NCBI GenBank assembly: GCA_038217285.1
Contig: JBBQPO010000056.1
Span: 1-25,039 of the forward strand
DNA: 25,039 nucleotides
Direction: 5' to 3'
DNA from: Chthonomonadales bacterium
Lineage (GTDB): Bacteria > Armatimonadota > Chthonomonadetes > Chthonomonadales > Chthonomonadaceae
The notes below the pieces were generated by a model. That model had not been told where the DNA came from. It made no database searches and was given only the letters and a program-made list of their open reading frames with translations. A program made the translations under genes and the position numbers. Of this stretch, positions 4,167 to 25,039 are shown one piece after another (the stretch's first letter is position 1; the number at the start of each line of letters is the position of its first letter).

Positions 4167-4203
4167 AGAGGAGTAGCGACGCAGAGCGCGTCGCTACTCC
4201 TCT
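4167..4203. terminator. Perfect 16-bp inverted repeat between convergent genes; probable bidirectional terminator-like hairpin
   Basis: AGAGGAGTAGCGACGC (4167-4182), loop AGAGC, GCGTCGCTACTCCTCT (4188-4203). Overlaps the cas6 stop codon; no strong U-tract on either side. Confidence 0.6.
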
Positions 4204-5006: not shown

Positions 5007-5064
5007 TCTCATCCTCCAGGACATTTTTCAGGCCACAATTTCTGTCCTATTCGAGGTCGCCTCG

Positions 5065-6195: not shown

Positions 6196-6259
6196 CTATT
6201 TCCTGCGCGCATCCGACAACCGACTGGTAACGAACCGAGATGGCAGTTATCGCACCAGT

Positions 6260-8830: not shown

Positions 8831-8835
8831 GGCTT

Positions 8836-9414
8836 TTACTCCGCATGTTTCGCTTTCAGAGGTTTTAGTTCGACGAGGCGACTTACAGTGATTGTGGCAG
8901 TTGGTTCTGAGTTCAGATAGTGCCTGATAACAAGGCGAGCCGATTCTATCGCTGATCCTGCGTTAGTATTGGTCGGCATTGATAGTGGCGGCGTATGGCG
9001 CATCCCCTGGGCTCCCTCTCTGAGGAGAGTGAACCCGTCAAGATGGTCTTCAATGTGCGTACCCCAAAGTAGTGTATCCTCATCGAAATATTCTGCGGAC
9101 TCACCTGGTACGTCGGTCGTCTTGCGCCATCCGAACTGCGCACTGTTCTTACGCCAGAGGAAAAGTTCCGATTGGGAGTTGAACACGCGTAGTTGTTGCA
9201 GGGCGGTCATGATGAAGACAGGTTGTTTGTGATCCGGGAAGTCAGGAGCGAGAACAAGTTTCCCCTCCTTGCAACTTCCCCACCGTACGCCACTATCGAG
9301 ATGAGCCAGCAAGGTAAACTCGCCCTTCGTTATAAAAGACGTCAGTTCCTTCATTGGGTCGTCTGTAACTCCAGGTTCGTGTTTAACATCACTGTATTTA
9401 AGTATTCTGCTCAT
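8836..9414 (-). CDS. csx19: Type III-D subunit Csx19
   Basis: LAHLDSGVRWG, LQQLRVFN..SELFLWR, LLWGT and L.IRHYL...SRLV motifs; canonical position between Cas7-Cas7 and Cas7-insertion. Confidence 0.85.
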   Translation of the reverse strand: MSRILKYSDVKHEPGVTDDPMKELTSFITKGEFTLLAHLDSGVRWGSCKEGKLVLAPDFPDHKQPVFIMTALQQLRVFNSQSELFLWRKNSAQFGWRKTTDVPGESAEYFDEDTLLWGTHIEDHLDGFTLLREGAQGMRHTPPLSMPTNTNAGSAIESARLVIRHYLNSEPTATITVSRLVELKPLKAKHAE

Positions 9415-10805
9415 TTTTTAGCGCTCCATGCCCCAACCGCACTCTCAAGCATTACTCTGGCTTCCTCTGATATTTGCAGTGTTCCGTCCGCCTTCTCCGT
9501 GATTGCGTAATCAACGCCATTGTATTTCACGTCTGCACGCTTGCCGTGAAGCCGTCCTCTTCCAACACTGCTTTCTCCACCTAACGGGAGGTCACCCGTC
9601 CACAGATCCTTGAGGAGGAGCAACAGGAGTCCTATTTCGCTGTCCCTACCTGCGGCACTCTCGTCTTTAGATGGCTTTAGTTCGAAGTGAAGATGGACAA
9701 TGGTGGCATTATCTCCAAAAACTGGCTGTTGATTGAACAGAAACTGGTCGCGGGCTCCTCCAGTAAAACGGTCGATGCTGACGCGGGACTGTACCAGATG
9801 GTCGATCCCCTCTTTGATTTCATGTTCCCAGACCAGAAGACGGCTTGCTTTTAGCGGCTTGCCCGAGGCTCCCAATGGCCCGAAGAGCGCATCGATGATA
9901 TCGCCTGCGTCTTGTTTATTAAGCGTATTGGCAATCTTGAGGGCACGGGCGCGCATGGCACCGGCCACAGACGTTCCGGAGAGTATCGGCACATCTGGTT
10001 TCCCAGTACGCTTAGCCTTGAGATGAACCATATCCGGAGCATTCTCGCCTCGATCCACCGAGCGTATCAAGAGAGAACCGTCGAGCCAGAACTTGGCATC
10101 CAGTACAAACCTGTTGCGCCCATCCGGTAGCGGCGTCACTTTCAGTCCGGATTTCATCGACACGCGCTGCGAGATGCCTCGTGCATAGATCCAATCCGCT
10201 AAGCCTCGTGGAGTCGTCAGGTCGTATTCTCGAACCTCCCAGATCTCCACTTTCGCCCGTCCATAGCCCCTGGTCTTGCGGCCACCTACCGGAATCTGTT
10301 CCGATTCGAAGCCCAAGAGCGCTGTTGCCAATGCCGTTCTCAGCATCGTCTCGTCGTCGTCATGGCAGATCAGCAGTTCGAAAAGGAGGGGAAAGATCGT
10401 GCCTGCCGCCCAGCATTCCCGGTTGTAAAGCGCGTCCTTTACCGCTGTTCTGGATTTGGAATCCAAACGCACACCGTCGCGGACTTCGACTTCATTACCT
10501 TCACCTAGCGAATCCTCGACGATCAACGGGCTCTGGGGCTCGGCCGCATTTGTTCCGAACAGTAACTCTGCATGCCTCGCATCGATCTCCCGAAGGTATG
10601 CTCGAACGGCTCCTGCAATAGACGATCCTGTGAGAAGGGGCTTTCCTTCCAGGGCATCTGTTAGAAGCGGCAAGTCCACCTGATCGTCGTTGTCTCCATT
10701 GCTCAGGGATGCAAGGGTTTGAAGAACAAGGCTACCTTGTACAACGATTCGTTTCTTGATTTTGCGGGAGTTCTCGGGTTGCCAACTTGCGTCCGGGAGT
10801 GTCAC
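9411..10805 (-). CDS. cas7: Tandem Cas7-Cas7 (Csm3-like x2) RAMP
   Basis: Two RAMP units: PLLTGSSIAGAVRA...VGGRKTRGYG and PILSGTSVAGAMRA...VSIDRFTGGA...LGGESSVGRG. Confidence 0.9.
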   Translation of the reverse strand: MTLPDASWQPENSRKIKKRIVVQGSLVLQTLASLSNGDNDDQVDLPLLTDALEGKPLLTGSSIAGAVRAYLREIDARHAELLFGTNAAEPQSPLIVEDSLGEGNEVEVRDGVRLDSKSRTAVKDALYNRECWAAGTIFPLLFELLICHDDDETMLRTALATALLGFESEQIPVGGRKTRGYGRAKVEIWEVREYDLTTPRGLADWIYARGISQRVSMKSGLKVTPLPDGRNRFVLDAKFWLDGSLLIRSVDRGENAPDMVHLKAKRTGKPDVPILSGTSVAGAMRARALKIANTLNKQDAGDIIDALFGPLGASGKPLKASRLLVWEHEIKEGIDHLVQSRVSIDRFTGGARDQFLFNQQPVFGDNATIVHLHFELKPSKDESAAGRDSEIGLLLLLLKDLWTGDLPLGGESSVGRGRLHGKRADVKYNGVDYAITEKADGTLQISEEARVMLESAVGAWSAKK

Positions 10806-12307
10806 GGTCGCTCCTCCTTCTCTTTCTGCATTCTTGCCAGAACCGAGTCGAGGAACCGGAGCTGCCTCTTCACCTGTTCAGCCTCTGACTCGATGTGGCG
10901 CTTGCCGCCGATTTCGGGGGGCTTAGCCCGAAACTCGGCCTTCAGCGCCTTGTAACCATCCAGCCAGGAAAGGAGATCTTCTCCTCTTGTTCCCACTCTG
11001 GCCTTCCTCCACTGCAGCGCTGTTTTCGCGGTAAGATCATTGCAGAAACGCTCGATGCACGAGAGCTTCGGACTGTCCAGGAGTGTCTCATGCAGAATGA
11101 CTTCTCGCAGTCTGGCAATCTGGCTGCTATTCAACTCTTTGCGCTGCGTTCTCGTATCCGTCAACATCCTCAATACTTTCCTCGCCTGTTGCGCTTCGTT
11201 GACCCTGCGAGAGATCAAGGTTGCTACCTCGATCTCGTCCGGATCCGAAAGTGCGATGTCGGCAGCATCGCGTTTGCCATCATCCCTGGTAAGACTCCAG
11301 TGTGACGGAGGAGAAAATACCGCTAAGCGTCCAAAACCCTCTGACCGGCGCTCTCCGATCCCGTTGATTTCGAGAGCATCAATTTCGGACTCACTCAGCG
11401 ACCTGGCAGGCAGCACGAGAACGGTGCCTTGCTTGTAGGCCAGGGCCTGTGGAAGCGGAAGGCCCCAGGTTCTATTGAATGCTCCTACCGGTGTTGTTTC
11501 GATAAAGGCGTTCTCAACGCTGATTCCGTTCTTGATTGCCTGGATCAGGGTGTCCGGGGAGACCGCAAACTGACCGAGTTCATCTCTTACCAGTGCATCA
11601 CTCAATAGAAGCACGATTTGACACATGTCATGATCTTCTTCTAAGCAAAAGGGGTGTTCTTTCCAACCTTGTTCTTCTGTCCCCGACAACGTGACATTGA
11701 CTTTGCCATAACCTGCGCGCGCGGCACCGCCCAGTCTGTCGATCTCTGTCACAAGAGCACAGATCAGGTTTGCCTCCTCGGTCCTCTCGCAAAGCGCTAC
11801 AGCCTCGAACACTTGGGATGCTGCGAGCGCATCGTATCTATATACGGTGCCGCTGTCCGGCCTGGCGGTCCCGAGCCGACGGTCTCTTGTCGTATGGATC
11901 GCAAGTTGCCGCTTTATCTCTGCAGCAATCCCCTTTCCGCTCTCATCGACGGAGGCAAAGCTAGCGCCAGGGGTTTTCCATTGCAGGTCTGAACGCAGTT
12001 GCTCAACACTTCCGTCATAGATCTCATCGTCGATTGAGAGGGTATCTTTTTGTTGCCGAAGCGAAAGTGGCAGTGGCAGCGCACGGCTATCGTCCGCGAC
12101 AATATATCCGTTCAGAAAGCGCACTTGCTCCGAAAGGAAAGAACCTAAATCGGCACACGGGTCATGTCGCAACAGGGTTGAGATGAAGGCACCGCGCAGT
12201 GCACTTCCAGGAAGGTACTCGATCGAGACCGCGCTGTTTGGATCCCCATCCAATCCCGTCAGCAATGCAGGTTCCTGTAGTTCAAGCCTATACCTGATGA
12301 CAATCAT
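10802..12307 (-). CDS. csx10: Csx10-like Cas5 RAMP with C-terminal helical small-subunit (Cas11-like) domain
   Basis: YLPGSALRGA, LGGAARAGYG, LLSDALV, GAFNRTWGLP and GIGERRSEGFG motifs; helical C-terminus with LNSSQIARLRE (the Cas11 call is an inference). Confidence 0.8.
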   Translation of the reverse strand: MIVIRYRLELQEPALLTGLDGDPNSAVSIEYLPGSALRGAFISTLLRHDPCADLGSFLSEQVRFLNGYIVADDSRALPLPLSLRQQKDTLSIDDEIYDGSVEQLRSDLQWKTPGASFASVDESGKGIAAEIKRQLAIHTTRDRRLGTARPDSGTVYRYDALAASQVFEAVALCERTEEANLICALVTEIDRLGGAARAGYGKVNVTLSGTEEQGWKEHPFCLEEDHDMCQIVLLLSDALVRDELGQFAVSPDTLIQAIKNGISVENAFIETTPVGAFNRTWGLPLPQALAYKQGTVLVLPARSLSESEIDALEINGIGERRSEGFGRLAVFSPPSHWSLTRDDGKRDAADIALSDPDEIEVATLISRRVNEAQQARKVLRMLTDTRTQRKELNSSQIARLREVILHETLLDSPKLSCIERFCNDLTAKTALQWRKARVGTRGEDLLSWLDGYKALKAEFRAKPPEIGGKRHIESEAEQVKRQLRFLDSVLARMQKEKEERP

Positions 12308-12960
12308 ATCGCCCCCTCCGGAAAAAGCAACGTAGGCTTGATCACCGCGCCTGAACCCATAAGCTCCGTTGCAAGTTTGCCTCGCCCGCGGTTTCTGCCG
12401 AGCCCGCCACGCCTCAAGCAGAGCGCACAGGCCGCCAGAAGTTGCTCGTCCATCCCCTTAGGCTCCTCGGAAAGTTTCAGTTCAGCGGTGAAGGTGAGGC
12501 TGCGTAAGACTGCCCGCTCCGTACGGAGGGAGTTCTTCACCGGCACGCCGTCTTGACCAATGGCTGTCTGACGGCGAACAGTGGTCAGGGACTCCAGAAA
12601 TTCAGCCGGGCTGATCTTGTTTCCTGTTACTTGGGCGATCACCGCCTGCTGTAAATTTCCAGGCAGGGTCGCCTGCCCGACAAACAGTAGGCCCGCGTCC
12701 TCGGTTCTGCTGCCCGGAACGCCGAAGAGCCGTTTCGCCGAGAGACGTGCTGCGTCGAGGTGAGCAGAATGGGACTCTCGGAGGCCATACAGCAGGTTGG
12801 CGCACTCTTCTACCAGTAGTCCTCGCAATGTACGCCCGCGCACAGATGGCAAGCCCGAGTGCGTGTCATACTCGACTTCGGTATCAATGAGGCCGGCTAC
12901 CCCTTCTCCCGATCCAAAAGTAGTGTCGCTTAGCAGCGTTATTTTGAGTTGATAGATCAT
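12304..12960 (-). CDS. cas7: Stand-alone Cas7-family RAMP (Csm3-like)
   Basis: LKITLLSD..FGSG.G.AGLID, GLP.VRGRTLRGLL, LFG.PG, RRQTAI and GGLGRNRGRG motifs. Confidence 0.88.
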   Translation of the reverse strand: MIYQLKITLLSDTTFGSGEGVAGLIDTEVEYDTHSGLPSVRGRTLRGLLVEECANLLYGLRESHSAHLDAARLSAKRLFGVPGSRTEDAGLLFVGQATLPGNLQQAVIAQVTGNKISPAEFLESLTTVRRQTAIGQDGVPVKNSLRTERAVLRSLTFTAELKLSEEPKGMDEQLLAACALCLRRGGLGRNRGRGKLATELMGSGAVIKPTLLFPEGAI

Positions 12961-14519
12961 GGCAGTGGCACCTGGATAAAAATATCGGCCAGTTCAATGG
13001 CGTCAAACAGAGTACATTGGGCTTTGTCCCAACCATCCTGAGGATTATCAGGCGCAAGTTCCTTCTTCAGTTGGTAGAGGATTCTGAATTTCGCTACGGC
13101 CTCGGCACCGCCGCGTAACTCTTCCCGCAGAGCCTTCATCTTATTGCGCTTTTCCGACCAATCGACATCCATCTGAAAATGGCGCGTCGTCGCCTCAACT
13201 TCCTTCCAGGAGCGATAACGTTGGGTTGAGGGTACCAGGGAGACCGGACGTTGATGCAGGCTGCCTGCCGATACTGTATATTCCGTATCTCGAATCTCTT
13301 TGATGGCGGATGACAGACCGGAGAGACCAAAATGCCAATCGAGGCAGGAACCTAAAGGTCGATCTGTCTTTTTGCGGAACTCTTTGGCGCTTTTACAGAG
13401 TTCCCCCGCCATAGCATACGCGCGGGCAAAGGGATGGTGCGATTTTACGATAGCTATTCCTGCGCAGGCTGTCAATTGATCTCCAATCAGGGCTTTTCGT
13501 TCCGGTTGGTTCGTCTCCTCTTCAAAGTACTTGAGATAGAGAGTTGCCAGAGAAATCCCGACTCTGCCATCACACACAAACGTTATGTCGTCTCCGCCAT
13601 AGACCAAGGGACGGAGAGGAAGGTACTCTCTGTGCTGAGCGCCATGACCCTCCCTGACAAGCTTTATTTGAAGACGTTCAGAGTAGTAGATTCCTGCGCA
13701 ACCCCCTTCCGGAGTAGTTACAGCATCTACTAAATCAGAGATCGTCCGCTTCATTGCCGCAATCCCCGCGTCGTTCACTGCATCTGAGAATTTCTTGAGA
13801 GCGTCGAGATAAGCGTCGTTCTGGTCTGGCTTTGGGTAGTGGTCTGCGATCTTTTGAAGCTGTTTGCCCATAGCGTTTCCGTCGGCGTGAACAATAGCAA
13901 TATAGCTCTGTTCCTCGATTGTCCGTCCGAGTTTGTCCAGGTCCTTGGGAAACGAGTACTCGCGAGCCACAAACTTGTCTTTAAGATCGTCGTCGGCATT
14001 GTCCGCAGCGTTTTCCTTCGCCAACACTTCTGCAGAAGCCTCGATAAGACGCTTGCTTCCTGGCTCCGGGCGAAATCCGACGGCAGCCAGACCAGTAGAC
14101 CGACACGCGCGGGTGATACCATATCCCAGAGCCGGACTGGTTCTTACTCGGGTGCGCTTCATGCCGTCGATCCGTTTCTGTATGGCAGGGAAGACGGTCT
14201 TTGCCATGCTGTCTGCGGCGAAATCGAATGGCTCGTGTGCCACAATCAGGTTTAGACCAGGAGCTTCCAATATCGCCTTCCGGGTCAACTCCCGTTCAAA
14301 TGCATCGGCCTCGGGTTGCGTATCAAAACATACCGCGAAGTTGCCGCCGCCTGCGTAGAGAGTTCTGGCCTTCCCATGGGATGCCGTCACCGCCGCCGTT
14401 TCCGCCCAGGGTCCTGTAGCGCACTTCACCAGATACGACGCTCCAATGTTTTCGCGCAGTCGGTTCGATCCGAATATGTAGGACTGAACCCCTGATGTGT
14501 CAACAAATGTGAGTATCAT
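12957..14519 (-). CDS. cas10: Type III-D Cas10 (Palm cyclase/polymerase, no HD domain)
   Basis: Begins MILTFVDTSGVQSYIFGSNRLRENIGAS; YAGGGN, IVHADGNAMG and LVYGGDDITFV (GGDD), AGIAIVKSHHPF motifs. Start ATG 14519 overlaps the upstream stop (ATGA); the track extension to 14681 lies inside the upstream gene. Confidence 0.93.
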   Translation of the reverse strand: MILTFVDTSGVQSYIFGSNRLRENIGASYLVKCATGPWAETAAVTASHGKARTLYAGGGNFAVCFDTQPEADAFERELTRKAILEAPGLNLIVAHEPFDFAADSMAKTVFPAIQKRIDGMKRTRVRTSPALGYGITRACRSTGLAAVGFRPEPGSKRLIEASAEVLAKENAADNADDDLKDKFVAREYSFPKDLDKLGRTIEEQSYIAIVHADGNAMGKQLQKIADHYPKPDQNDAYLDALKKFSDAVNDAGIAAMKRTISDLVDAVTTPEGGCAGIYYSERLQIKLVREGHGAQHREYLPLRPLVYGGDDITFVCDGRVGISLATLYLKYFEEETNQPERKALIGDQLTACAGIAIVKSHHPFARAYAMAGELCKSAKEFRKKTDRPLGSCLDWHFGLSGLSSAIKEIRDTEYTVSAGSLHQRPVSLVPSTQRYRSWKEVEATTRHFQMDVDWSEKRNKMKALREELRGGAEAVAKFRILYQLKKELAPDNPQDGWDKAQCTLFDAIELADIFIQVPLP

Positions 14520-15907
14520 GCGGTCTTTCCCTCCTCTTCCACAGTCTTGATCCAGTTCTTGATGTGGTCGTGCAAACCCAGCAGGTGGTCGATCCCAAAA
14601 ACCCGAATCTTCGACTTCTCGCTTAGAATGTTGCTTGCTTCCTTTTCGAGGTTCAGACAATCTGCCCTTCTGAGGAGACACACGAAGGCAACTCGTGCCT
14701 CATCGCCGCCAATCTGACGGGCCCGCATGATTGCTTCGAAGAGTTTCCACTTCGCGCGTCCCTCACCCTCATTGATTTCCCGTTCGATAGCACATGAGAA
14801 ACCGAAGAGTTGGTAGCCTCTGATTCCGAGTACATCCAGTTCAAATTTTATATCTTTGAAATTCGGGTAGGTAGGTTCGATGTTAATGCACATGTCGTGC
14901 ATTCCGAATCCGCCGTTTTTGTTCGCCTGCTTCAAACAGTGCAGAGTGTAGTGTTCCAGCCATTTTCCGCAGATCCATTCATAAAAGGTATTGATGAAAC
15001 CGACGGAGCCCACCGGCTTGCTTGCAACAAGATCCAAGTGGTTTACATTGAACGGAAGTTCGGTTCTCAGCACGTCGCGGAGGTCTACAGACAGGCCAGA
15101 AAGATCAACCGGTTGATAGGCAGCAAGATTCGCCTCCAGTTCCGATAAATACCGGGGATCATCGGACCTTAATCCTGGTTTTGCCGCTTTAAGGTGGTCT
15201 GCTATCCCTTTACTATTTTTTTCACTTTTGAATCTTTGACCGGCATATCGTCCGTCTTTAAAGTCTAGCCAGGCATGGAGTTGTGGCCCGCCAGCCTTGC
15301 TGATTCTCGCAAGTTCGACAGCGGTTTTGGGTAAGAATACCGTCTCTTGAGGCCGGCCGTTCTTGAATTTGCCCCCGTGTAGACCTAGCATTCCGGCCAG
15401 AGAGACCTGATCAGCCTGCATATCGATGTAATCTTCTTCATTGCCGGACGATGGATCTTCCATATCAAAATAGAGCCGCAGATTACGCGCACTCAGGTAG
15501 CTGAGGAGCGGCTTCCCCTTGTTGGGTGCCCAATTGGAGACAACACGATGTGCGTGAACGGCCATCGCTTTCGTCCCGGTGGTGTAGTGAAGTCCAGCAC
15601 GTTTCCCAGGGTGCAGGGCAAGCGCATTTGAAACTACCGTGCAGATACTCGACTGTCGCGATTCATCCATCAGTTCCTGGAACACTCCCACACGAACCCC
15701 TTGTCCAGCCAGTTTTTGCTCCAGGTACGGTAGAAGATAGTCAGCGCCTATCTCTTTCGTGCCTTCCGTGCATAACATTGTCACCACGCCGCCAGCCTTG
15801 ACAAGGCGTGACGCAGTGACGGCATTTGGTAGAGTATTGCCTCCAATCAGCAGAAGTAGATGCTCCGCTTTGTAATGTTCCAGGTCGTTGATGTCGATTT
15901 CGGGCAC
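14516..15907 (-). CDS. CARF + PD-(D/E)xK-type nuclease effector, Can2/Card1 (DUF1887)-like
   Basis: CARF motifs HLLLLIGGNTLPN and GLHYTTGTKAMAV; nuclease motifs GKWLEHY, FELDVLG...LFGFSC and RARQIGGDEA. Start GTG 15907 with AAGGAGG upstream (track start 16033). Confidence 0.8.
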   Translation of the reverse strand: MPEIDINDLEHYKAEHLLLLIGGNTLPNAVTASRLVKAGGVVTMLCTEGTKEIGADYLLPYLEQKLAGQGVRVGVFQELMDESRQSSICTVVSNALALHPGKRAGLHYTTGTKAMAVHAHRVVSNWAPNKGKPLLSYLSARNLRLYFDMEDPSSGNEEDYIDMQADQVSLAGMLGLHGGKFKNGRPQETVFLPKTAVELARISKAGGPQLHAWLDFKDGRYAGQRFKSEKNSKGIADHLKAAKPGLRSDDPRYLSELEANLAAYQPVDLSGLSVDLRDVLRTELPFNVNHLDLVASKPVGSVGFINTFYEWICGKWLEHYTLHCLKQANKNGGFGMHDMCINIEPTYPNFKDIKFELDVLGIRGYQLFGFSCAIEREINEGEGRAKWKLFEAIMRARQIGGDEARVAFVCLLRRADCLNLEKEASNILSEKSKIRVFGIDHLLGLHDHIKNWIKTVEEEGKTA

Positions 15908-16152
15908 GAGTGCCTCCTTCTTCTCTCTGAATGCCCAGATGTTCAAATGTGTGACGTGGGATGGAACTTTTCCTGAATTGGATTCCGGCGAGAGGAACAG
16001 TATTGCCTGGTAGATTTGCCGGACTATCTGCATTTACCTGCGTGGTAATCCGGAAAAGCGGTCAAATTATCCAAAATATTTAAGGAGGCTGGCATTTTAA
16101 TTGTTTTTGTGAGGGATGAAACTTTTCTGGGCGCGTTGCTGTCAGTGGTTGT

Positions 16153-16469: not shown

Positions 16470-17186
16470 ATGCGCCGCAATCTCACTCTCAATCCGCTCG
16501 CCGATCAGATCCGATGCCATCTGCATCTCAACGTCACACCCCGCGTTTCCGGATACTGGAATCGCATGGCGAAGGCGTGTTCACGTCGCCCTGATCGCTA
16601 TCGCTTTTATCACCCAGACTTCGATCAGTTCGATATCCATATGGTGGACGAAGTCATGGAGTATCTCGCTGCCTGCGGCTACGACCCGCTTCTGCCTCTT
16701 GCGAATCATCTCAAGCGGGCGGAACGCCTTCTGTGGAGCTTCTGGAAGAAAAACGTTCATCTGGAGCGTTGGGCCTGCCGGATCACTCCGCTCTCTCTGG
16801 ATCAACAGTTAGAAGAGCACGGCGACACTGCGCTGGAAGGCGCACTCGATCTTCTGGATCGTCCTCTGGCAGACATGGACCGCTACTTCGACTCAAACTG
16901 TGAACAACGCACTTTTATGGCGTTGCGGGAGGAAGGGTGGCCGAAGATAAAAGCAGAAGTGGTCGTGATGAAGGTCTTCGAGGGATATGACTACAAGACG
17001 CTTGCGGAATACCTTCAGATCGTGGAGGCTCAGGCCGTTCTCCCCGCCACTATCCGACAGTGGGTCAGCCGCGATTTCAAACAGGTAGGGCGTAGAATTC
17101 TGCCCAGAGTTCTGGAGTGGGAGCCGCCGCCAGAGGATCTTCGCCCCGACCGCCGTCACAAACCCAGGCGTTCCAGGCATTCTTAA
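16470..17186 (+). CDS. Divergent sigma70-family-like protein (region 4-type HTH)
   Basis: PLSLDQQLEEHGD resembles the sigma 'SLD' linker; KAEVVVMKVFEGYDYKTLAEYL...ATIRQWVSR resembles a sigma region-4 HTH. Start ATG 16470 after AAAGGGG (track start 16263). Region 2 not clearly recognised. Confidence 0.55.
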   Translation: MRRNLTLNPLADQIRCHLHLNVTPRVSGYWNRMAKACSRRPDRYRFYHPDFDQFDIHMVDEVMEYLAACGYDPLLPLANHLKRAERLLWSFWKKNVHLERWACRITPLSLDQQLEEHGDTALEGALDLLDRPLADMDRYFDSNCEQRTFMALREEGWPKIKAEVVVMKVFEGYDYKTLAEYLQIVEAQAVLPATIRQWVSRDFKQVGRRILPRVLEWEPPPEDLRPDRRHKPRRSRHS

Positions 17187-17269
17187 TCAATAGCGGAGAC
17201 AACCAGCCGATGGAAAGGCTCCGAGATCATCCTACGAATCAGACTCGACCGTTTAGAAAGGACATCGTT

Positions 17270-18844
17270 ATGAACACCGAAACCCGCAATGGCAACTATA
17301 GTAACGGCATCACTTCACTTCCTGCTCGTCCGGATTCTGACGATGTCACGGTCGTCGTTGCGCCTTCCGAGGTTCGCTCCAACATGCCTGTTGTTGCACA
17401 GACAGTGGAGGCGCGCAATACCAACAGTCTTCTGACCCGGCTACGCGATAAGTGGGGCAACCGTCTTCCCGAATCGTTCGCCGCCTCTGTACCCTTTCTG
17501 CCCAACAAGCCTCTGGAGGAGTCGCCGCTGGCCTCTACTTTTGCCGTCATTGCAGCGGAGCGGCCTGGGCAGGCAGGCCGTTTGGCTGCGCTCTATGAGC
17601 GCCTTATGCAGGCGCTGGACCGCCTGATCGCCGTTCGCGCCGAGGAAGAGGCCCAGATAGAAGCCTGCAATGGGCGCGTGATGAGTCGAAAGGCCGCCAT
17701 CTCCGGCGAACAGGCCCGCCTCGAAGCGGCGCGCGACGCGGTGCAGCCCGAAGTCCGAAGCGACCTGAAGGACATCGAACCCGTGCTGGCTGCCGCGCAT
17801 GAGGAGGCGACGCATAAAGTCGCGGCAACGGGCGGAACCTACGATCCCGATATGCCTTCCGATGCGTGCGTGCTGCGCCATGCCCACAAACCCCAGGAGG
17901 TCGCCGCCGCTCATCTGCGCCTGCCCTGGATACCGGGAGATGCCGTGTATGCCTGGGTGCATCGGCTGAGCTGGGCGCTGACCCTTTTGGTCGGCGCATG
18001 GATCGGCCTCTCCATCGGCTTCGTCACGGGTATCGTACATCCGGGCAGTCTCGACCGTGAATGGCCCCAGGCCGTGCTGCTGTTCGTGCTGGGGCAGGTC
18101 GTCTCGGTGCCGGCCTACCTGGGAATCTTCCATACCTTCCGCATCGCCACCCAGCGCTACTATTTGGACCATAAGCCCCTGAGTTGGGCGCCCTTCGCCG
18201 CTCTGGGTGTCGCGGCTTCTCTCGCCATCGTCTGCCTTTGCGCCAACACCGACCGCCTGGGTCTGGTCCATTTGATCCAACTCAACGATGCCACCGCTGC
18301 GCTGGACGGTCAGCAGCATACGTCCGCCAACGATATGGGCTACTGGCTTGTCGCCCTGCTCGTCTCCGTTCCCTTTGCCATCGCCACCGCTGCCGAGGCT
18401 TATCTCAGCGGCCGCAGAACGGCCGTCCCCAACCGGATCGAGGCAGAGCGACACGACCACTTCCAGCAGACCGACACCGCCAGACGCGCCGAACCGGTCG
18501 TGCAGGAGGCGCTTCGTGTTATCGCCTATGTGAACGAGATCCTGCGCCGCCAGTCGGCACTCCGGACCCAACTGGACGCAGGCGAAGCGCCTTTCACCCG
18601 CAAACTCGACGCGCTTACCGCCGAATCCGGAAGCCTGCAAGAGACGCATGCGCTGGACGACGCAGCCCTGCGCCGCATTCAGGACGCCCATGACAACGCC
18701 CAGTGGGCGCAACTCTGGCTAGATTTCGAGATCGAATGGGCGCTGGATGAATGCGAACCCTCCCACAGTTTTTGGCGGCGGCTGAGACGCGCCCTGTTCC
18801 GCCCGCGCGCCCCTCGTCGCTTTTCGCGCTCCAAGCGCCGCTAA
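17270..18844 (+). CDS. Uncharacterised membrane protein: coiled coil, ~4 TM helices, coiled coil
   Basis: Heptad-rich segments flank hydrophobic helices (LSWALTLLVGAWIGLSIGFVTG; AVLLFVLGQVVSVPAYLG; PFAALGVAASLAIVCLCA; YWLVALLVSVPFAIATAA). Start ATG 17270 after AGAAAGGA. Confidence 0.7.
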   Translation: MNTETRNGNYSNGITSLPARPDSDDVTVVVAPSEVRSNMPVVAQTVEARNTNSLLTRLRDKWGNRLPESFAASVPFLPNKPLEESPLASTFAVIAAERPGQAGRLAALYERLMQALDRLIAVRAEEEAQIEACNGRVMSRKAAISGEQARLEAARDAVQPEVRSDLKDIEPVLAAAHEEATHKVAATGGTYDPDMPSDACVLRHAHKPQEVAAAHLRLPWIPGDAVYAWVHRLSWALTLLVGAWIGLSIGFVTGIVHPGSLDREWPQAVLLFVLGQVVSVPAYLGIFHTFRIATQRYYLDHKPLSWAPFAALGVAASLAIVCLCANTDRLGLVHLIQLNDATAALDGQQHTSANDMGYWLVALLVSVPFAIATAAEAYLSGRRTAVPNRIEAERHDHFQQTDTARRAEPVVQEALRVIAYVNEILRRQSALRTQLDAGEAPFTRKLDALTAESGSLQETHALDDAALRRIQDAHDNAQWAQLWLDFEIEWALDECEPSHSFWRRLRRALFRPRAPRRFSRSKRR

Positions 18845-18881
18845 AACGAACCTAGATTTTTGAGGAAAGGAAACAACTCCC

Positions 18882-19541
18882 ATGAAAACCAGAACTCTTA
18901 CCACTCGAACCCGCCGCATACTCGCACCGTTGTGTTGCCTCTTCTGTCTGGCGCTTCTGGACGGCTGTGGCTCGCGTCAGCGGCTGACTCCAGTGGCGTC
19001 GTTCGTGGGGGTCGATGCTTCCGTCAGTACGCGCCACTGCCAGCCTGCGTATGTCGCCCTGATTTCCGGCTACACCGGTCGCCTGGAGCCCGACTGCGAT
19101 CATCTCACCATCTACCGCGTCGAGAGGCAGACCTTCGAGATATTCGATGACCGCGCCCCTGGCAATCAGGAAGCGATGCAGGCACGCATGGTCGCTCAAC
19201 TGCGCAAACATCCACGCGAGGACGGAACGTATCCTGCGCTCTTCTGGAAAACCGTTGCAGAACGTGCGGAACACGCTTCCGGGAAAGTCCTGGTCACGCT
19301 CTACTCGGATGGAGATAACGACGACCAGACCGAAACCGCCCGTGAGACCATCCGGGCCGCAGCGCGCCGCCTCGCCGCCAATCCCCATGTCGTCGCGGTA
19401 GCCATCTGTGGCGTCAATCCCGACAACCGGGCGGCGCTCCGCAGACTCTTCCAGCCGTGCGGTGATCGTCTCCTGCTCTTCGGCCCGGATCAACTCGATC
19501 AAAACACGCTCCATCGTCTGCACGCACTCGTTCAGCGCTGA
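18882..19541 (+). CDS. Predicted lipoprotein with vWA-like (MIDAS) domain
   Basis: Basic N-terminus, hydrophobic stretch and lipobox-like LLDG|C; MIDAS-like VGVDASVS (DxSxS), DGT and LYSDG motifs. Confidence 0.7.
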   Translation: MKTRTLTTRTRRILAPLCCLFCLALLDGCGSRQRLTPVASFVGVDASVSTRHCQPAYVALISGYTGRLEPDCDHLTIYRVERQTFEIFDDRAPGNQEAMQARMVAQLRKHPREDGTYPALFWKTVAERAEHASGKVLVTLYSDGDNDDQTETARETIRAAARRLAANPHVVAVAICGVNPDNRAALRRLFQPCGDRLLLFGPDQLDQNTLHRLHALVQR

Positions 19542-19607
19542 CTTCTCAAATAGAATGATCCCGCAAATTTCGCGCTTGTTCGTGCGCGAAATGGAAAGGA
19601 TCAGGTT

Positions 19608-20900
19608 TTGCGGGAAAGGTTAAGAAAATCGATGAATCCACCGACCTATGGCGCTGTAGAGGAGATAACATCCGTCTGGTATGGCGGCGCGGCCGCAGCT
19701 ACCGCTGTCGTGAAGCGCGGACCTGTCGTGCCGCCCTTACCCAGCCTCGGCGCATCAACGCTCCTGCCGGGAACGCTGCTGGCAGGGCGCTATCGGCTGG
19801 AACAGTCGCTGGGCGAAGGTGCCTTCGCCCGCGTCTATGCCGCCTGGGACAGTGCGCTCCACCGCTGGGTGGCTGCGAAAATCTCCCCTTCGGCAACCGG
19901 CGGACAGCTCTCGGCGGGCGAAGCCCAACTCCAGGCCGCCTGTCAGCATCCGAACCTCATGCCCCTCTATGATGCAGGGAGCGACCCGCTGCTCGGCGTC
20001 GCCTACATCATCATGCCCCTCTATCCCGGCTCCGATCTGGCCGCCACTCTCAACCGCTATGGCCCCATGCCCTTCCGCACGGCCCTCCTCTGCACCGATC
20101 AGGTCTGCAGCGCCCTGGAGTTTCTCCAACAGCGGCGCAATGCCGTGCATGGCGACATTAAACCGGCCAACATCTGGCTCACCAACAGCGGCGCAGCCCT
20201 CCTCATGGATTTCAACCTCTATGGCCTGCTCACACAGGGTGACTGTCTCCGGGCCGGCACACCGGGCTATACCGCTCCCGAGGCCTTGATGGGACGGATG
20301 GACGCCCGTTCCGACGTTTTCTCCCTTGCCTGCGTCCTCTACCAGTGCCTTGCCGGAAGCCCTCCCTTCACCGACGATGCTGCGGTTCAGGCCGGACAGT
20401 TCACTCCGCTAAGACGCCTCCGCCCTGACCTGCGCCCGGAACTCGAAGCCGTCATTCATCGCGCCCTGGCCCGGCAGCCCGAGCAACGTTTCCAATCCGC
20501 ACGAGAGTTTCAGACCGCCCTACGCCGTCCCGACACTGCGGGTCTGGAGGGACGTATCGCTCTCAACACCATCTTTCGCACATTGATGAGAATCGCCCGA
20601 CAGCTCGGCCGCATGCTCGCCGCCGTCTATCGCCTTACCTGGCGGATGCTCACAAAGTTTCTGCGTCATGCCGTCCATCGCCCCCTCCCTGCCCTTATCG
20701 AAGCCGTCGTTTTCTGCATTCTCAGCCGCGCTGCGCTCGACATGGCGCGCCAAGCCGGCCTCTACTGGTGGAGGCTTCATCAAGGCGACGTAAAGACGGT
20801 CGCTTGGGGTGCACTCTCCCTTGGCGTCGTATCCCTCGTCGGCACGATAGCAAAACCATTTCTGACCCGTCGTAACGCGCAGAGGAGAGCAAAACAGTGA
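19608..20900 (+). CDS. Hanks-type Ser/Thr protein kinase with C-terminal membrane helices
   Basis: LGEGAFARVY, VAAK, HPNL, HGDIKPANI, MDFN, GTPGYTAPE, SDVFSLAC and PEQRF subdomain motifs; two hydrophobic C-terminal segments. Start TTG 19608 or ATG 19632. Confidence 0.92.
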   Translation: MRERLRKSMNPPTYGAVEEITSVWYGGAAAATAVVKRGPVVPPLPSLGASTLLPGTLLAGRYRLEQSLGEGAFARVYAAWDSALHRWVAAKISPSATGGQLSAGEAQLQAACQHPNLMPLYDAGSDPLLGVAYIIMPLYPGSDLAATLNRYGPMPFRTALLCTDQVCSALEFLQQRRNAVHGDIKPANIWLTNSGAALLMDFNLYGLLTQGDCLRAGTPGYTAPEALMGRMDARSDVFSLACVLYQCLAGSPPFTDDAAVQAGQFTPLRRLRPDLRPELEAVIHRALARQPEQRFQSAREFQTALRRPDTAGLEGRIALNTIFRTLMRIARQLGRMLAAVYRLTWRMLTKFLRHAVHRPLPALIEAVVFCILSRAALDMARQAGLYWWRLHQGDVKTVAWGALSLGVVSLVGTIAKPFLTRRNAQRRAKQ

Positions 20901-23770
20901 ACATCAACCGTCCCAAAAACGCCGTCAGCCCCGCCGACAACCGCGCCACTGTGGTCGTTGCCGCGGCCCAGGGCGTTCAGCTGCGTATCCTGAACGGACC
21001 GGAAGCCGGTCGCCTGATCCCCGCCACAGAATTTCCCTGCCGTCTCGGAAGAGGAGACAACTGTCGCGTCGTTCTTGCTGATCCCGACGACCCACCCGCC
21101 CTCTCTCGTGAACACGCCACCCTCTCCCGACCCCGGCGTCACGCGGGCGAAATTGTCGTCACCGATCACAGCCGCAACGGCACCTGCGTCGGCGGCCAAT
21201 GGCTCGCCTCCGGCGAGGCCGAACTGCTGATGCCAGGCGAAACGCTCCAACTCGGTCCTACCCTGCGCCTCCTTCGAGAACATGCGTCCGGCCCAACCTA
21301 TCCCGCGACGGTCATGGTCCCGGAGCAAAAAGCGCAGGATCTCCCGCCGCCTGTCCCTGCAGACCTCCGGGCATTTCTGACGATGCCCGAAACATTACAG
21401 GCAGCCTGGCGGCGAGTCGCCCTGAACCGGGGCGCAGCCGGGCCCGACAACGTCACCCTCCAGGAGTTCGCCCAGACCGCCGACCGCCGACTGACCGTCC
21501 TGCGCAGCGATCTGATGCGCGGACGCTACCAACCCCTGCCGCCCCGCCTGTTCGCCGCCCCCAAACGCAGCGGAGGCGTCCGCGCCATCGCCATCCTCTC
21601 CATCCAAGATCGCATTGTCCAGCAGGCCCTGCACTCCGCCCTCCAACCTCATCTGGAGCGCTTCTTTCCGCCGTGCAGCTATGCCTACCGCCCCGGCGTC
21701 TGTGCCCACCATGCGCTGCGCCGCGTCGATACTCTCTTGAGGGAAGGCCAGACCTGGGTCGCGGAAACCGACATCGCCGGCTTTTTCGACACGATCCAGC
21801 ACACGCTCCTGCTCGAAAAGCTCACGGCCCGTATTCCCGATCCTTTCCTCCTCTCCCTCGTTGCCCGCTGCCTGGCGGTCGGTGCCAGGGCTCCCGGCAT
21901 CGGTATCGCGCAGGGCGCAGCCACCTCTCCCCTCTTCAGCAACCTCTATCTCGCGGAGTTCGATGCCGCCATGCTCGCCGGGGGCTGGAACCCCGTCCGA
22001 TACGGCGACGATCTCCTGTTCCCCGTGCGCGAACGCCATCGCGCCAGGGCTGCGCTCGCCGAAGCCGAAGGCTTCCTGCGTTCTCGCCTGCATCTGACCG
22101 TCAAACCCGAGAAGACAGGTGTCGTCTGCCTCGCCCAGGGATTTACCTTCCTCGGCTTTCACTTCACCGAAGCCGGACGGCAGGCCGCGCCCCAGGCCGT
22201 CGCCCAACTCACCGAACGCCTGCAAGCGGCCACGCCCGAAGCGGCTCCTGCCATCGTTCGCGGCTGGAAAAACTATTTTGGAGCCGAGCCTGACTCCGTC
22301 ATGCCGCAGACTATAATAGAGGAACACATCCCTCCTACACCGCAGGCTGCCTCGGACTATGACGACCAGCCGCCTCGACCGGACGCCATCCCCCTGGTCT
22401 CATCCGCCTTCGCCGCGCTGGACGCCGCCGACATTGCGCGGTTCCTGGCCCTCTTCGGCGGACGCGAAGACCTCATCGCTCGGCAAAGTGGCCAGGGTAG
22501 CCGACCCCGCTTCACAGCGAGCCACGAAAGCCTGTCCCCTGAAAGTGTTCGCCGCCACCTCGCCGGCCTGGAGACCCTGGCCACCTACCTCGTTCGCCTC
22601 GATGGAACGGTTCGTCATCTTGTCTTCGACATGGATATTGCCCAACCACCTGGACGCCCTGCCGCGCAGGAGACCGAAGACCGGGAAGGCATTCAAGACG
22701 TGAAGGCCTTTGCCGAGGACATCTACCGTGTCTGTCGCTCCCTCGGTCTCCCTGCTTGCCTCGAAGACAGCGGTCGGCGCGGGCGGCATCTCTGGATCTT
22801 CTTCTCCGAAGGAGTTGCGCCGGAACGGGCACGGCGTTTGGCGCGCTTGCTATCGTTGCGCGCGGGCTTTCCCCGTGACGGCGTTCGGCTCGAAATCTTT
22901 CCTCGCCATACCGACTGGCCCGGCCCTGAACTGGGTGACGCCGTCAAACTCCCGTTCGGTGTCCATCCCGCCACGGGACGCCGCTGCTTCTTCCTGGATG
23001 CCTCCGGCGAGCCGATCCCGGATCCCGCCGCAGCGCTGGAGCGCATTCGAACCGTCTCCCCCGCAGAAGTGGAAGGACTCATTACCGTCCTCTCCCAGCT
23101 CGAAACCGCCGGAGCAACAGAGCAAAACCTGCCGCCACGAAAAGACACTGTCCCTCCAAGCGCCGTCGATAAACTGGTCTCCGGATGTTCCGTCATCCGG
23201 ACGCTGGTCCAGCGCGCCCAGCAGACCGGCCATCTGCGCCATACCCACCAGCTCATTCTTCTCTATACGGCCGGACGCCTCGGCCCCGAAGGCGCGGCCT
23301 TTCTGCATCGAACCATTGCCAACTGCCGCAACTACGACGCCGGCATCTGTCAGGGCTACATTGATCGCCTGGAACAGAATCATCCCCCACTCGGTTGCCG
23401 CCGTATCCGCGAATGGCTGGAGGAAGAGGGCGAATCCGCGCTCTGTACTTGCCCTGCCGCACGTCGAACGCCCCTCGAACTCACCACCACGGAAACCGTA
23501 GAGGACGCCCTCGCAGCAAAGCTGAAAAAGCCGCGTTCGCCCCGCGCCCAGGCCTGCCAGACACCGCTGCCCACCGAGGTCCACTCGGCTCTGTGGCAGG
23601 AAGTCGCCGACGATCTCTTCGCCGAGGAGACCGTCGAGACTGTCCTCCCTTCCCCAGATCCAGACGAGGCCTGTCTTTCACATGCGCAGGACGACGGTCT
23701 TTTTCTGCCGGATGATTTTAACGCCCAGGCGACGGAGGCGACGGAGCCTCAGAAGGAATTGGACCTATGA
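20897..23770 (+). CDS. FHA - group II-like reverse transcriptase - AEP primase-polymerase (CAPP) - Cys-rich PriL-like CTD fusion
   Basis: FHA: LGRG..C, LSREHA, SRNGT. RT: AWRRV..NRGAAGPD, PKRSG..R, DRIVQQA, SYAYRPG, DIAGFFD, GIAQG..SPLFSNLYL, RYGDD (22001-22012), FLGF, RGWKNYF. AEP: F.GRED, VFDMD (DMD at 22628-22636), EDSGRRGRHLWIFF, EIFP, VKLPFGVH. CTD: CSVI...CRNYD...C.RI...CTC. Confidence 0.88.
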   Translation: MNINRPKNAVSPADNRATVVVAAAQGVQLRILNGPEAGRLIPATEFPCRLGRGDNCRVVLADPDDPPALSREHATLSRPRRHAGEIVVTDHSRNGTCVGGQWLASGEAELLMPGETLQLGPTLRLLREHASGPTYPATVMVPEQKAQDLPPPVPADLRAFLTMPETLQAAWRRVALNRGAAGPDNVTLQEFAQTADRRLTVLRSDLMRGRYQPLPPRLFAAPKRSGGVRAIAILSIQDRIVQQALHSALQPHLERFFPPCSYAYRPGVCAHHALRRVDTLLREGQTWVAETDIAGFFDTIQHTLLLEKLTARIPDPFLLSLVARCLAVGARAPGIGIAQGAATSPLFSNLYLAEFDAAMLAGGWNPVRYGDDLLFPVRERHRARAALAEAEGFLRSRLHLTVKPEKTGVVCLAQGFTFLGFHFTEAGRQAAPQAVAQLTERLQAATPEAAPAIVRGWKNYFGAEPDSVMPQTIIEEHIPPTPQAASDYDDQPPRPDAIPLVSSAFAALDAADIARFLALFGGREDLIARQSGQGSRPRFTASHESLSPESVRRHLAGLETLATYLVRLDGTVRHLVFDMDIAQPPGRPAAQETEDREGIQDVKAFAEDIYRVCRSLGLPACLEDSGRRGRHLWIFFSEGVAPERARRLARLLSLRAGFPRDGVRLEIFPRHTDWPGPELGDAVKLPFGVHPATGRRCFFLDASGEPIPDPAAALERIRTVSPAEVEGLITVLSQLETAGATEQNLPPRKDTVPPSAVDKLVSGCSVIRTLVQRAQQTGHLRHTHQLILLYTAGRLGPEGAAFLHRTIANCRNYDAGICQGYIDRLEQNHPPLGCRRIREWLEEEGESALCTCPAARRTPLELTTTETVEDALAAKLKKPRSPRAQACQTPLPTEVHSALWQEVADDLFAEETVETVLPSPDPDEACLSHAQDDGLFLPDDFNAQATEATEPQKELDL

Positions 23771-24762
23771 TTACCCTCTATGTCAAGGAACAGGGAGCGG
23801 GCATCCGCCGATCAGGCCAGCGTCTTATCGTCTACAAAGGTGAGAGCATACTGCAAACCGTTCGCCTCCGGGAGGTAGAGCGCGTTGTCCTTATAGGAAG
23901 CATTGATGTGTCTGCATCGTCTCAGTTAGCGTTGCTGGAAGCAGGCGTCGAAACGGTGCTCCTTTCCTACGGCGGACGATTTCGTGGCAGACTCTGTCCG
24001 GCAGAAGGCCGCAACGTGTTTCTCCGGCAGACCCAGTTTCACCGCTACGACGACACCGCCTTTCGGCTCCGAATCGCGCAGACGCTCGTAGACGCCAAGA
24101 TTCGCAACGGGCGATTCGTATTGCAGCGTTATTATCAAAACCATGCGGAACCCGCGTTAGCGGCGGCTATAGAACGGATGCAGCGCAGCCGATTGCAAGT
24201 CCAAAAGCAGGCAAACATCGAAGCCCTCCTGGGCGTAGAAGGGGACGCCGCGCGGGTCTATTTCGCCGCATTCGGGGCCATGATGCGTGCAGAATTCGTT
24301 TTTACCCTTCGCTCTCGGCGTCCGCCCCGTGACCCGGTCAACGCCCTTCTGAGCTTCGGCTACACCCTTCTCACTACGGAACTCACGGGATCTGTGGCCG
24401 CGCAGGGCCTCGATCCCTATGTCGGAGTGCTCCATGATCTCGACTACGGTCGCCCCTCTCTGGCGCTCGACCTGCTGGAAGAGTTTCGGCAGCCGGTCAT
24501 AGATCGCCTGGTCCTGAGTCTGATCAATCGGGGCGTTATGAAACAGGCAGACTTCGACGATCGGGGTGAGGCAGGGGTTTGGATGTGCGACGAAGGGCGT
24601 ACCCGTTTTCTGGACTACTACCACCGTGCACTGGAGACGCCCTTCGAGGACAGAACAGTGGGCGGCAAAACGACATTTCGCGATCTTCTGATGCGGCAGG
24701 CCCAACGAATGCGAGCCGCGCTACAAGGCGAGAGTGAATACGAGCCTTATACTCCGCGATAA
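23767..24762 (+). CDS. cas1: CRISPR-associated integrase Cas1
   Basis: LLGVEGDAARVYF, RRPPRDPVNALLSFGY, GLDPYVGVLH and SLALDLLEEFRQPVID motifs; ATGA overlap with the upstream fusion gene. Confidence 0.96.
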   Translation: MITLYVKEQGAGIRRSGQRLIVYKGESILQTVRLREVERVVLIGSIDVSASSQLALLEAGVETVLLSYGGRFRGRLCPAEGRNVFLRQTQFHRYDDTAFRLRIAQTLVDAKIRNGRFVLQRYYQNHAEPALAAAIERMQRSRLQVQKQANIEALLGVEGDAARVYFAAFGAMMRAEFVFTLRSRRPPRDPVNALLSFGYTLLTTELTGSVAAQGLDPYVGVLHDLDYGRPSLALDLLEEFRQPVIDRLVLSLINRGVMKQADFDDRGEAGVWMCDEGRTRFLDYYHRALETPFEDRTVGGKTTFRDLLMRQAQRMRAALQGESEYEPYTPR

Positions 24763-24791
24763 TCTCCATAAGGAGACAAGAGGATCTGCCC

Positions 24792-25039
24792 ATGCCTCAG
24801 ACAACAAAAACGCGCTATGTCCTTTCCTACGATGTGACCGACGACAGCAACCGGACGAAATTGTCGAGGCTACTATTGGACTACGGCGAACGTATTCAAA
24901 AAAGTGTGTTCGAAGCCGATTTAAGCGCCGGAGAAATGCAGGAGATTCTGATAAAGGCGGCGAAATACCTTTCTGACAGCGACAGTTTGCGATTCTATCC
25001 CCTCTGTCGCACCTGCGCAGGGAAGGTAGTTTCCTTAGG
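24792..25039 (+). CDS. cas2: CRISPR-associated Cas2 (3' truncated by window)
   Basis: Hand translation: MPQTTKTRYVLSYDVTDDSNRTKLSRLLLDYGERIQKSVFEADL...DSLRFYPLCRTC; YDV, R.QKSVFE and DSLR.Y are Cas2 signatures. Not in the ORF track. Confidence 0.93.
   Translation, partial: MPQTTKTRYVLSYDVTDDSNRTKLSRLLLDYGERIQKSVFEADLSAGEMQEILIKAAKYLSDSDSLRFYPLCRTCAGKVVSL

Follow-up and report, generated by a model that had tools for sequence, protein, structure and literature searches.

A Hanks-type kinase and an FHA-RT-PrimPol fusion as a predicted conserved unit of CRISPR adaptation in Armatimonadota

We analysed a stretch of 25,039 nucleotides (nt) from a Chthonomonadales bacterium (Armatimonadota; contig JBBQPO010000056.1 of assembly GCA_038217285.1), hereinafter the window. 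From position 16470 to the window end its plus strand carries seven open reading frames (ORFs), all in one orientation, the last four of which encode a Hanks-type Ser/Thr kinase, a protein combining an FHA domain with a reverse transcriptase (RT) and a primase-polymerase (PrimPol), hereinafter the fusion, and the adaptation proteins Cas1 and Cas2. Judging by comparison with related genomes, the kinase, the FHA-RT-PrimPol protein and Cas1 (with Cas2) appear to form a conserved, co-inherited functional unit. The fusion/Cas1/Cas2 part is the published CART-CAPP adaptation module, and new here are the N-terminal FHA domain and the coupled Hanks kinase with C-terminal membrane segments. We lean, with reservations, towards the reading that this unit is a variant of CART-CAPP in type III systems in which spacer acquisition would be under kinase/FHA phospho-control.

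Results

Domain content of the fusion

The kinase gene (19632-20900, plus strand, 422 aa) has a frame open from TTG 19608, and its database form, P0067, begins at ATG 19632. It is followed on the same strand by the fusion gene (20897-23770, 957 aa), cas1 (23767-24762; Cas_Cas1, E = 5.2e-93) and cas2 (24792-25039; CRISPR_Cas2, 5.5e-19), the latter being cut by the window end. Start and stop codons overlap by four nt both between kinase and fusion (GTGA, 20897-20900) and between fusion and cas1 (ATGA, 23767-23770). A preliminary description of this DNA, made from the sequence alone, had proposed seven co-oriented genes with such overlaps diverging from a type III-D operon, and coordinates and sequence bear this out; the identities it gave for the kinase, the FHA-RT-primase fusion, cas1 and cas2 are likewise upheld by Pfam and NCBIfam.

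Three Pfam domains were found in the fusion: FHA at residues 49-120 (1.9e-9; PF00498, 38.2 bits at a cut-off of 20.7), RVT_1 at 222-423 (5.1e-27) and AEP-TOTE, a domain of archaeo-eukaryotic primase (AEP) type, at 542-726 (1.5e-29). The FHA domain as a whole spans 20975-21277 (residues ~27-127) and also matches Yop-YscD_cpl (1.4e-7). The RT region (21389-22234) matches TIGR04416 (residues 165-442, 3.2e-69) and, in the PDB, the group II intron RT 6ar1 (residues 165-446, 6e-38), as well as Cas6-RT-Cas1 7kft (5e-30). The PrimPol with its cysteine-rich C-terminal domain (22418-23479, residues 508-861) matches the NCBIfam model of CRISPR-associated primase-polymerase type A1 (NF040561, 2.7e-67; 227.5 bits, cut-off 200) and PDB chains 7nqd/7nqf (3e-23). 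The PADLOC models for RT (3e-77) and for the PrimPol 'adaptation polymerase' (4e-51) agree with this. Thus three features of CART-CAPP class A are found, namely an AEP domain with a Cys-rich C-terminus, an N-terminal group II intron-like RT, and cas1-cas2 neighbours in a type III locus. The primase/polymerase activity and the role in spacer acquisition are putative.

In an alignment of 29 rows, RT residues Y369 and D371 are invariant and D372 is nearly so; also invariant are D578, D580 and H631 of the AEP domain, which we take to be its acidic DxD and His motifs, and the cysteines C764, C810, C834, C850 and C852. The FHA residues G51, R52, S70, R71, H73, N94 and G95 are identical in 25 of 25 FHA-bearing rows (alignment A1), and all of the signature loops by which FHA domains bind phosphothreonine (Gly-Arg, Ser-x-x-His, Asn-Gly) are present. 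Immediately N-terminal of the FHA domain lies a D14-x-R16-x-T18 motif (20936-20950, plus strand). Its D is retained in 20, and its R and T each in 19, of the 25 FHA-bearing rows, and the DxRxT pattern occurs in 21 of the 29 FHA-bearing proteins. T18 of this tail is a candidate phospho-acceptor threonine.

The kinase

The kinase matches Pfam Pkinase with E = 1.9e-31 (109.9 bits, cut-off 31.7), and 54 orthologues were found at E<=1e-67, followed by a sharp fall to generic kinases from 162 bits down. It has the Hanks-kinase features (glycine loop, Lys, alpha-C Glu, catalytic Asp/Asn, metal-binding Asp and APE); HRD is replaced by HGD, and DFG by DFN. All 35 of the 35 rows share the catalytic residues G61xG63, K83, E97, H173-G174-D175, N180, D193-F194-N195 and E217, and the kinase is accordingly predicted to be an active, non-RD enzyme. 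The activation loop of this family is short and has no conserved Thr except that of the GT in the P+1 loop (alignment A3).

Two hydrophobic segments, 351-372 and 389-407, lie about 17 residues apart, and there is no extracytoplasmic domain. One or more hydrophobic segments C-terminal to the kinase domain are present in 48 of the 55 family members. Near the N-terminus of the family there is a T-x-W-Y-G motif, whose Thr is found in 30 of 35 rows. Either motif, D-x-R-x-T in the fusion or T-x-W-Y-G in the kinase, might supply the Thr that is phosphorylated and recognised.

Conservation of the kinase and fusion genes

Co-orientation alone proves nothing; what carries weight is whether the kinase-fusion pair is conserved in other genomes. 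Searching with the fusion sequence yielded 31 homologues (P0002-P0032; coverage at least 58%, identity 36-61%, the closest relatives, P0002-P0006, being 60-61% identical), beyond which come FHA-less RT-PrimPol proteins and then RT-Cas1 fusions. A motif check found the FHA signature in 29 of the 32 top proteins, the window's own counted; P0020, P0024 and P0025, where it is missing, start within the RT or only a little ahead of it and seem to be truncated at the N-terminus. All named members of the fusion family are from Armatimonadota.

A scan of genome contigs gave 78 related loci with 9,114 ORFs, Capsulimonas corticalis not being among them. A full FHA-bearing fusion is encoded in only two of the 78, L001 and L002, and the gene neighbourhood was thus viewed directly for two of the 28 FHA-bearing homologues. 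In both, a kinase (53% and 62% identity to that of the window) is encoded directly upstream of the fusion and cas1 directly downstream; cas1 follows the fusion or RT-PrimPol in all of L001-L008. A hidden Markov model of the kinase family, built on 35 orthologues, matches ORFs in L001 and L002 only (E<=0.01). In Capsulimonas corticalis the kinase (CCAX7_35680) and the fusion (CCAX7_35690) have adjacent locus tags.

For metagenomic contigs that were not read directly, linkage was scored when exactly the same longest-contig size was reported for a fusion and a kinase. By this measure 17 fusion/kinase pairs, the window and Capsulimonas corticalis included, are on contigs of exactly equal size, whereas no such match was found for the 65 generic kinases that came from the kinase search. 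When the 17 fusions are compared in pairs, their identities correlate with those of the 17 partner kinases (r 0.77), a value reached by none of 2000 shuffles of the partners. Thus the fusion/kinase pairs are real and inherited together.

One further locus, from a Chthonomonadales genome with a type III-B (cmr) system (L003:8997-11328), has cas6 followed by no more than the C-terminal ~270 residues of the fusion and by cas1. Kinase, FHA and RT are all absent there, and the locus looks like a decayed copy of the module.

A sister clade without the FHA domain

A tree of the RT-PrimPol core was built from 42 rows, with P0029 and P0030 (too short), L004 (split) and L008 (cut) excluded. The 27 FHA-bearing rows and the three N-terminally cut ones form one clade (SH-aLRT 96), whose sister is a clade of eight rows without FHA (support 100); three TPR-bearing proteins fall outside both. 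Where the first clade has the FHA domain, the sister clade has a hydrophobic region of ~100 residues with a conserved Trp/Tyr-rich motif. Hydrophobic segments were flagged in the N-termini of seven of the nine members examined, the two others being P0033 and P0034, of which P0034 is N-terminally short. This region is probably membrane-spanning; that it might be a degenerate FHA domain was ruled out by alignment and hydropathy, which show a hydrophobic domain. No kinase was found near the sister-clade genes in the 78 loci, nor on a contig of equal size.

The sister-clade RT-PrimPols (L004:4548-7210, L005:463-3078, L006:963-3614, L007:320-2923; P0033, P0035-P0037) come from Armatimonadota, a Desulfovirgula metagenome-assembled genome and an 'uncultured archaeon' bin. 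Membrane-anchored CART-CAPP proteins are not mentioned in the examined passages of the CART-CAPP literature.

Other arrangements were also seen around such genes. In a Myxococcales locus (L012:3668-5979) a JAB-domain protein and a ThiF-family protein are encoded directly upstream of the RT-PrimPol/cas1/cas2 unit; ThiF also appears in the legend of an adaptation-association figure in PMC10910872. In L030:9881-13876 and L054:207-5390 the PrimPol-like and RT-like stretches are separate and flank cas1-cas2, an unfused arrangement.

The divergent type III-D operon

The type III-D interference and signalling operon (4194-16033, minus strand) contains cas6, CARF-RelE, a TIGR03986 RAMP gene, csx19, a RAMP gene, csx10, another RAMP gene, a cas10-like gene and a gene for a Card1-like CARF nuclease. 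Csx19 scores above its cut-off, the TIGR03986 RAMP has E = 8e-106, and Csx10 (8e-33) is under its cut-off; a Cas10 palm2 domain, Cas6 and two CARF effectors complete the set. The effectors are CARF-RelE (5065-6195) and the Card1-like (Card1/Csx1-like) nuclease (14516-16033, minus strand). The Cas10-like protein is short, 574 residues, and its ORF overlaps that of the Card1-like protein by 166 nt.

The GC content at third codon positions (GC3) is 0.63 in ORF-A, 0.73 in ORF-B, 0.68 in ORF-C, 0.70 in the kinase, 0.71 in the fusion, 0.63 in cas1, 0.51-0.64 in the III-D genes and 0.79 in the flanking mreB, with no clean separation among genes. As the values of the III-D genes are far below that of mreB, a horizontal origin of these genes is suggested. 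No CRISPR array was found in the window, and an Rfam scan of it gave no match.

The three upstream genes

Between the divergent operon and the kinase lie three genes on the plus strand, ORF-A, ORF-B and ORF-C. ORF-A (16470-17186, 238 aa) has a frame open from 16263, with ATG 16470 preceded by the ribosome site AAGGGGA, and encodes an all-helical protein. ORF-B (17210 or 17270-18844; both alternative ATGs have plausible ribosome sites) encodes a nearly orphan membrane protein with coiled-coil-like ends and, by hydropathy, four hydrophobic segments, so that the transmembrane protein of the preliminary description stands. It has no family match in Pfam, NCBIfam or PADLOC, and in the Atlas only unnamed clusters were returned, with low recognition. 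Its single homologue among 5.8 billion proteins, P0188 (36% identity, full length), is on a contig whose size equals that of no fusion or kinase contig.

ORF-C (18882-19541) begins with a signal-like hydrophobic stretch ending in ...DGC. Its AF2 model (pLDDT 93.2) finds vWA domains as the best Foldseek matches (E = 2e-9, probability 1.0, TM up to 0.75). In an alignment with 56 relatives the Gly-Cys lipobox position and the DxSxS...T...SDGDND residues are conserved; of the MIDAS-like residues, T116 and D143 are invariant, and D45 and S47 are retained in at least 90%. The Pfam VWA model matches four of the 56 relatives and not the window protein. The predicted fold and the MIDAS residues thus confirm ORF-C as a vWA-fold lipoprotein, as first proposed. 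The ORF-C family (P0189-P0338; 288 representatives at E<=0.001, ~200-240 aa) is without a Pfam family of its own.

None of the three genes has a homologue in the 78 loci at E<=10, L001 and L002 included, and the ORF-C family profile gives only two marginal matches there (E = 0.004 and 0.0096). In L002 a gene homologous to the Card1-like one of the window (35% identity, E = 3e-50) is again divergent, and cas6 occupies the position between it and the kinase; hence the slot is variable. L001 stops 280 bp upstream of the kinase and has an unrelated opposite-strand ORF there. By the synteny check suggested with the preliminary description, the kinase is kept beside the fusion in both loci, but the vWA, transmembrane and sigma-like neighbours are not. 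ORF-B and ORF-C are local neighbours rather than demonstrated members of the conserved module, and the three genes are best explained as inserted in this lineage, with the divergent promoter region on one side and the conserved unit on the other, and as standing outside the conserved mechanism.

The fuller scheme of the preliminary description made these genes the front end of a relay, in which the vWA lipoprotein and the transmembrane protein sense an envelope event and pass it to the kinase and on to FHA-RT-PrimPol/Cas1-Cas2, ORF-A being a dedicated sigma factor. The genes are co-oriented with short gaps (23 or 83, 37, 90 and 29 nt at the junctions without overlap), and a simple scan found no terminator-like site inside the spacers of the seven genes; such promoter and terminator scans performed no better on the window than on shuffled sequence. 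Because the kinase itself lacks an extracytoplasmic domain, sensing by a separate protein would be plausible; ORF-C has a true vWA fold with MIDAS-like residues, and the kinase PpkA of the type VI secretion system (T6SS) has a periplasmic vWA domain. CRISPR-linked associations of vWA, kinase and transmembrane genes are also catalogued in the portion of PMC10910872 consulted. Against this stand the absence of ORF-A/B/C from the related loci, with cas6 in their slot in L002, the unmatched contig of the only ORF-B homologue, the lack of a PADLOC match to TerY-P or any other system for the three proteins, and the 90-nt gap between ORF-C and the kinase with a structured hairpin in it. This hairpin (19556-19603, plus strand) has a minimum free energy of -29.2 kcal/mol (z -2.35; 2 of 200 shuffles equally good) and is nested, a 9-bp GC-rich stem lying within a 6-bp stem (inverted repeat I11) with no clean U-tract; it is possibly an attenuator or a processing site. 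We consider the full relay improbable, and the envelope-sensor front end is unsupported by the comparison of loci.

About equally improbable is that ORF-A, with or without ORF-B, is a transcription regulator of the CRISPR-cas genes unrelated to the kinase, which would be compatible with phospho-control by the kinase/FHA pair. ORF-A lies at the divergent promoter region beside the Card1/Csx1-like CARF gene, and its GC3 resembles that of the III-D genes more than the 0.68-0.73 of the genes from ORF-B to the fusion. It has a weak Sigma70_r4_2 match (E = 0.027; 14.6 bits, cut-off 25.7), and some of its language-model look-alikes in the Atlas belong to clusters with Sigma70_r2, Sigma70_r4_2, GerE and HTH_23, most being unnamed, so that these are leads only. 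Precedents are the 'Sigma_factor + Csx1' and 'CARF_Sigma' entries in the consulted part of PMC10910872 and, as described in the relevant passages of PMC6061681, DdvS/DdvA, the extracytoplasmic function (ECF) sigma/anti-sigma pair of the Myxococcus xanthus type III-B system, in which DdvA is a single-pass anti-sigma factor with an N-terminal zinc-binding ZAS domain. However, no family match of ORF-A is significant, a region 2 match is missing, and the single-sequence fold prediction failed (pLDDT 34.7, unusable); the sigma-like identity first assigned to this gene is not confirmed. ORF-B as a ZAS anti-sigma factor was rejected, as it has four membrane segments and, when its sequence was read by eye, no HxxxCxxC. 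The only PDB matches of ORF-A, to the ClpB coiled coil (E = 0.003), were judged spurious. In L004 the surroundings of an FHA-less RT-PrimPol/cas1/cas2 unit and a Csm6-HEPN-like gene include a 313-aa ORF (L004:1362-2303, minus strand) that matches Sigma70_r2 weakly (E = 4e-5) and has no similarity to ORF-A.

Discussion

FHA domains bind phosphothreonine (pThr) written by Hanks kinases. Given the conserved kinase/fusion unit and the invariant residues of both the FHA domain and the kinase, phospho-control of adaptation, as proposed in the preliminary description, is a reasonable inference, while the sensor front end that was part of that proposal drops out of the core claim. The membrane-anchored kinase would phosphorylate a threonine, either one of its own or the one in the fusion's conserved D-x-R-x-T tail, and the FHA domain of the fusion would read this mark. 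The RT-PrimPol/Cas1-Cas2 machinery would in this way be held at the membrane-bound kinase, turned on or off, or both, making the synthesis and integration of new spacers conditional on kinase activity. Phospho-gating or membrane recruitment is the likely outcome, and we favour recruitment as a component of the mechanism, because one clade seems to anchor its RT-PrimPol directly and in the other an FHA reader goes together with a kinase anchored in the membrane.

Several observations weigh against phospho-control by this pair. Direct adjacency is seen in the window, L001 and L002 and in one pair with adjacent tags, and the other 13 pairs are linked by equal contig size alone. No size-matched kinase was found for 13 of the 28 FHA-bearing homologues; ten of these are on contigs shorter than 9 kb, and the longer contigs are those of P0032 (14,633 bp), P0011 (14,682 bp) and P0022 (19,200 bp). 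Conversely, 38 of the 54 kinase orthologues have no size-matched fusion. The contigs of six of these (P0103, P0106, P0108, P0109, P0113, P0119) measure 11-77 kb, so that the kinase family may have roles outside this module too. Only ~8 residues separate T18 from the FHA fold, a short distance for intramolecular binding, and at the T-x-W-Y position the window kinase has Ser, with Thr one residue earlier. Family scans of the window ORFs gave no PP2C phosphatase, and a passage of PMC10415136 reports that the PrimPol domain of two CART-CAPP fusions is inactive.

The weakest alternative, which we regard as quite unlikely, is that the kinase acts by itself in anti-phage defence or stress, as in single-gene kinase defences, and rides along with the CRISPR locus, and that the FHA domain reads the product of another kinase or oligomerises independently of phosphorylation: the best PADLOC matches of the kinase are indeed generic defence-kinase models (PD-T4-6, 1e-57; mad6, 5e-46) and most of its orthologues are among those without a fusion on an equal-sized contig, but its gene overlaps that of the fusion, the two are co-inherited, the kinase is present only where the fusion has FHA, and the pThr-binding residues are invariant.

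Starting from phospho-control, a more specific and distinctly more tentative proposal would be that spacer acquisition is pThr-gated at the membrane: a kinase cued by infection or by the envelope would dock and activate RT-PrimPol/Cas1-Cas2 where foreign nucleic acid enters, and the sister clade would be placed there by its built-in anchor. In this genome the vWA lipoprotein and the membrane protein with four segments may serve as additional sensors. If acquisition is gated in this manner, this would be the first case of CRISPR adaptation controlled by a post-translational signalling switch. The control of spacer-acquisition timing is poorly understood, and the module offers a compact testable case, with one kinase, one reader fused to the acquisition polymerase, invariant residues that can be mutated, and a cultured carrier, Capsulimonas corticalis. 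The existence of one clade with FHA and kinase and another with a direct anchor also raises the idea that capture of RNA- or DNA-derived spacers occurs at the cell membrane.

Comparison with known systems

An RT fused to a CRISPR-associated primase-polymerase beside cas1-cas2 defines the CART-CAPP class, as set out in the relevant passages of Zabrady et al. 2021 (PMC8211822) and Zabrady et al. 2023 (PMC10415136), and the corresponding part of a review (PMC8632793) lists RT clade 12 with an AEP. The protein described here shares with CART-CAPP the group II intron-like RT, the AEP PrimPol, the Cys-rich C-terminus, the cas1-cas2 neighbours and the type III context. It differs in the FHA part of ~130 residues and the conserved D-x-R-x-T tail that precede the RT, and in the dedicated membrane-anchored kinase encoded upstream. 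The words 'FHA' and 'kinase' do not occur in the main text of these three papers, nor do 'protein kinase' and 'FHA' in a survey of type III accessory genes (PMC6546367), and full-text literature searches brought up no publication in which CRISPR adaptation is linked to an FHA domain or a Hanks kinase.

Entries in Table S3 of Altae-Tran et al. 2023 (PMC10910872) include 'vWA + FHA + PP2C', 'wWA + kinase' (sic), 'Kinase', 'RVT + group II intron PrimPol' and 'Sigma_factor + Csx1'. Thus vWA, kinase, FHA, transmembrane and sigma genes beside CRISPR loci, and an RVT-PrimPol adaptation entry, are common to that catalogue and the window. The entries are given without mechanism, and none of those in section 14 and Table S3, compared by entry names, is named as FHA-RT-PrimPol with a kinase. 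The earlier statement that no described CRISPR adaptation module with such a signalling front end is known therefore largely holds for the FHA/kinase coupling, but not for the RT-PrimPol module, which is published, nor for CRISPR-linked vWA, kinase, FHA and sigma-factor associations, which are catalogued.

With DdvS/DdvA, as portrayed in the passages of PMC6061681 referred to above, the window has in common a membrane-linked regulator encoded beside a type III locus, with proposed sensing of an external signal. That pair acts on transcription, whereas here a sigma identity of ORF-A is not demonstrable and ORF-B does not have the single-pass ZAS build of such an anti-sigma factor. The TerY-P triad consists of vWA, PP2C and kinase; ORF-C has no PADLOC match to it, and the phosphatase is missing from the window.

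The closest parallels in signalling are the pairs of a Hanks kinase and an FHA protein, PpkA-Fha1 of the Pseudomonas H1-T6SS and mycobacterial PknB-GarA, in which, as here, a membrane kinase is found beside an FHA protein with the full pThr-binding set. GarA also resembles the fusion in having a conserved Thr close to its FHA domain, within a short tail at the N-terminus. The hallmarks of TagQRST-PpkA-Fha1 are a periplasmic sensor domain in the kinase, a PP2C phosphatase, and lipoprotein and membrane partners that are conserved. In the window, the kinase is of the non-RD HGD type and has hydrophobic segments only, with no extracytoplasmic domain, PP2C was not found, and the TagQRST-like partners are not conserved in the relatives. 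In the known pairs the output is a secretion apparatus or a metabolic enzyme, whereas here it would be a spacer-acquisition polymerase and integrase.

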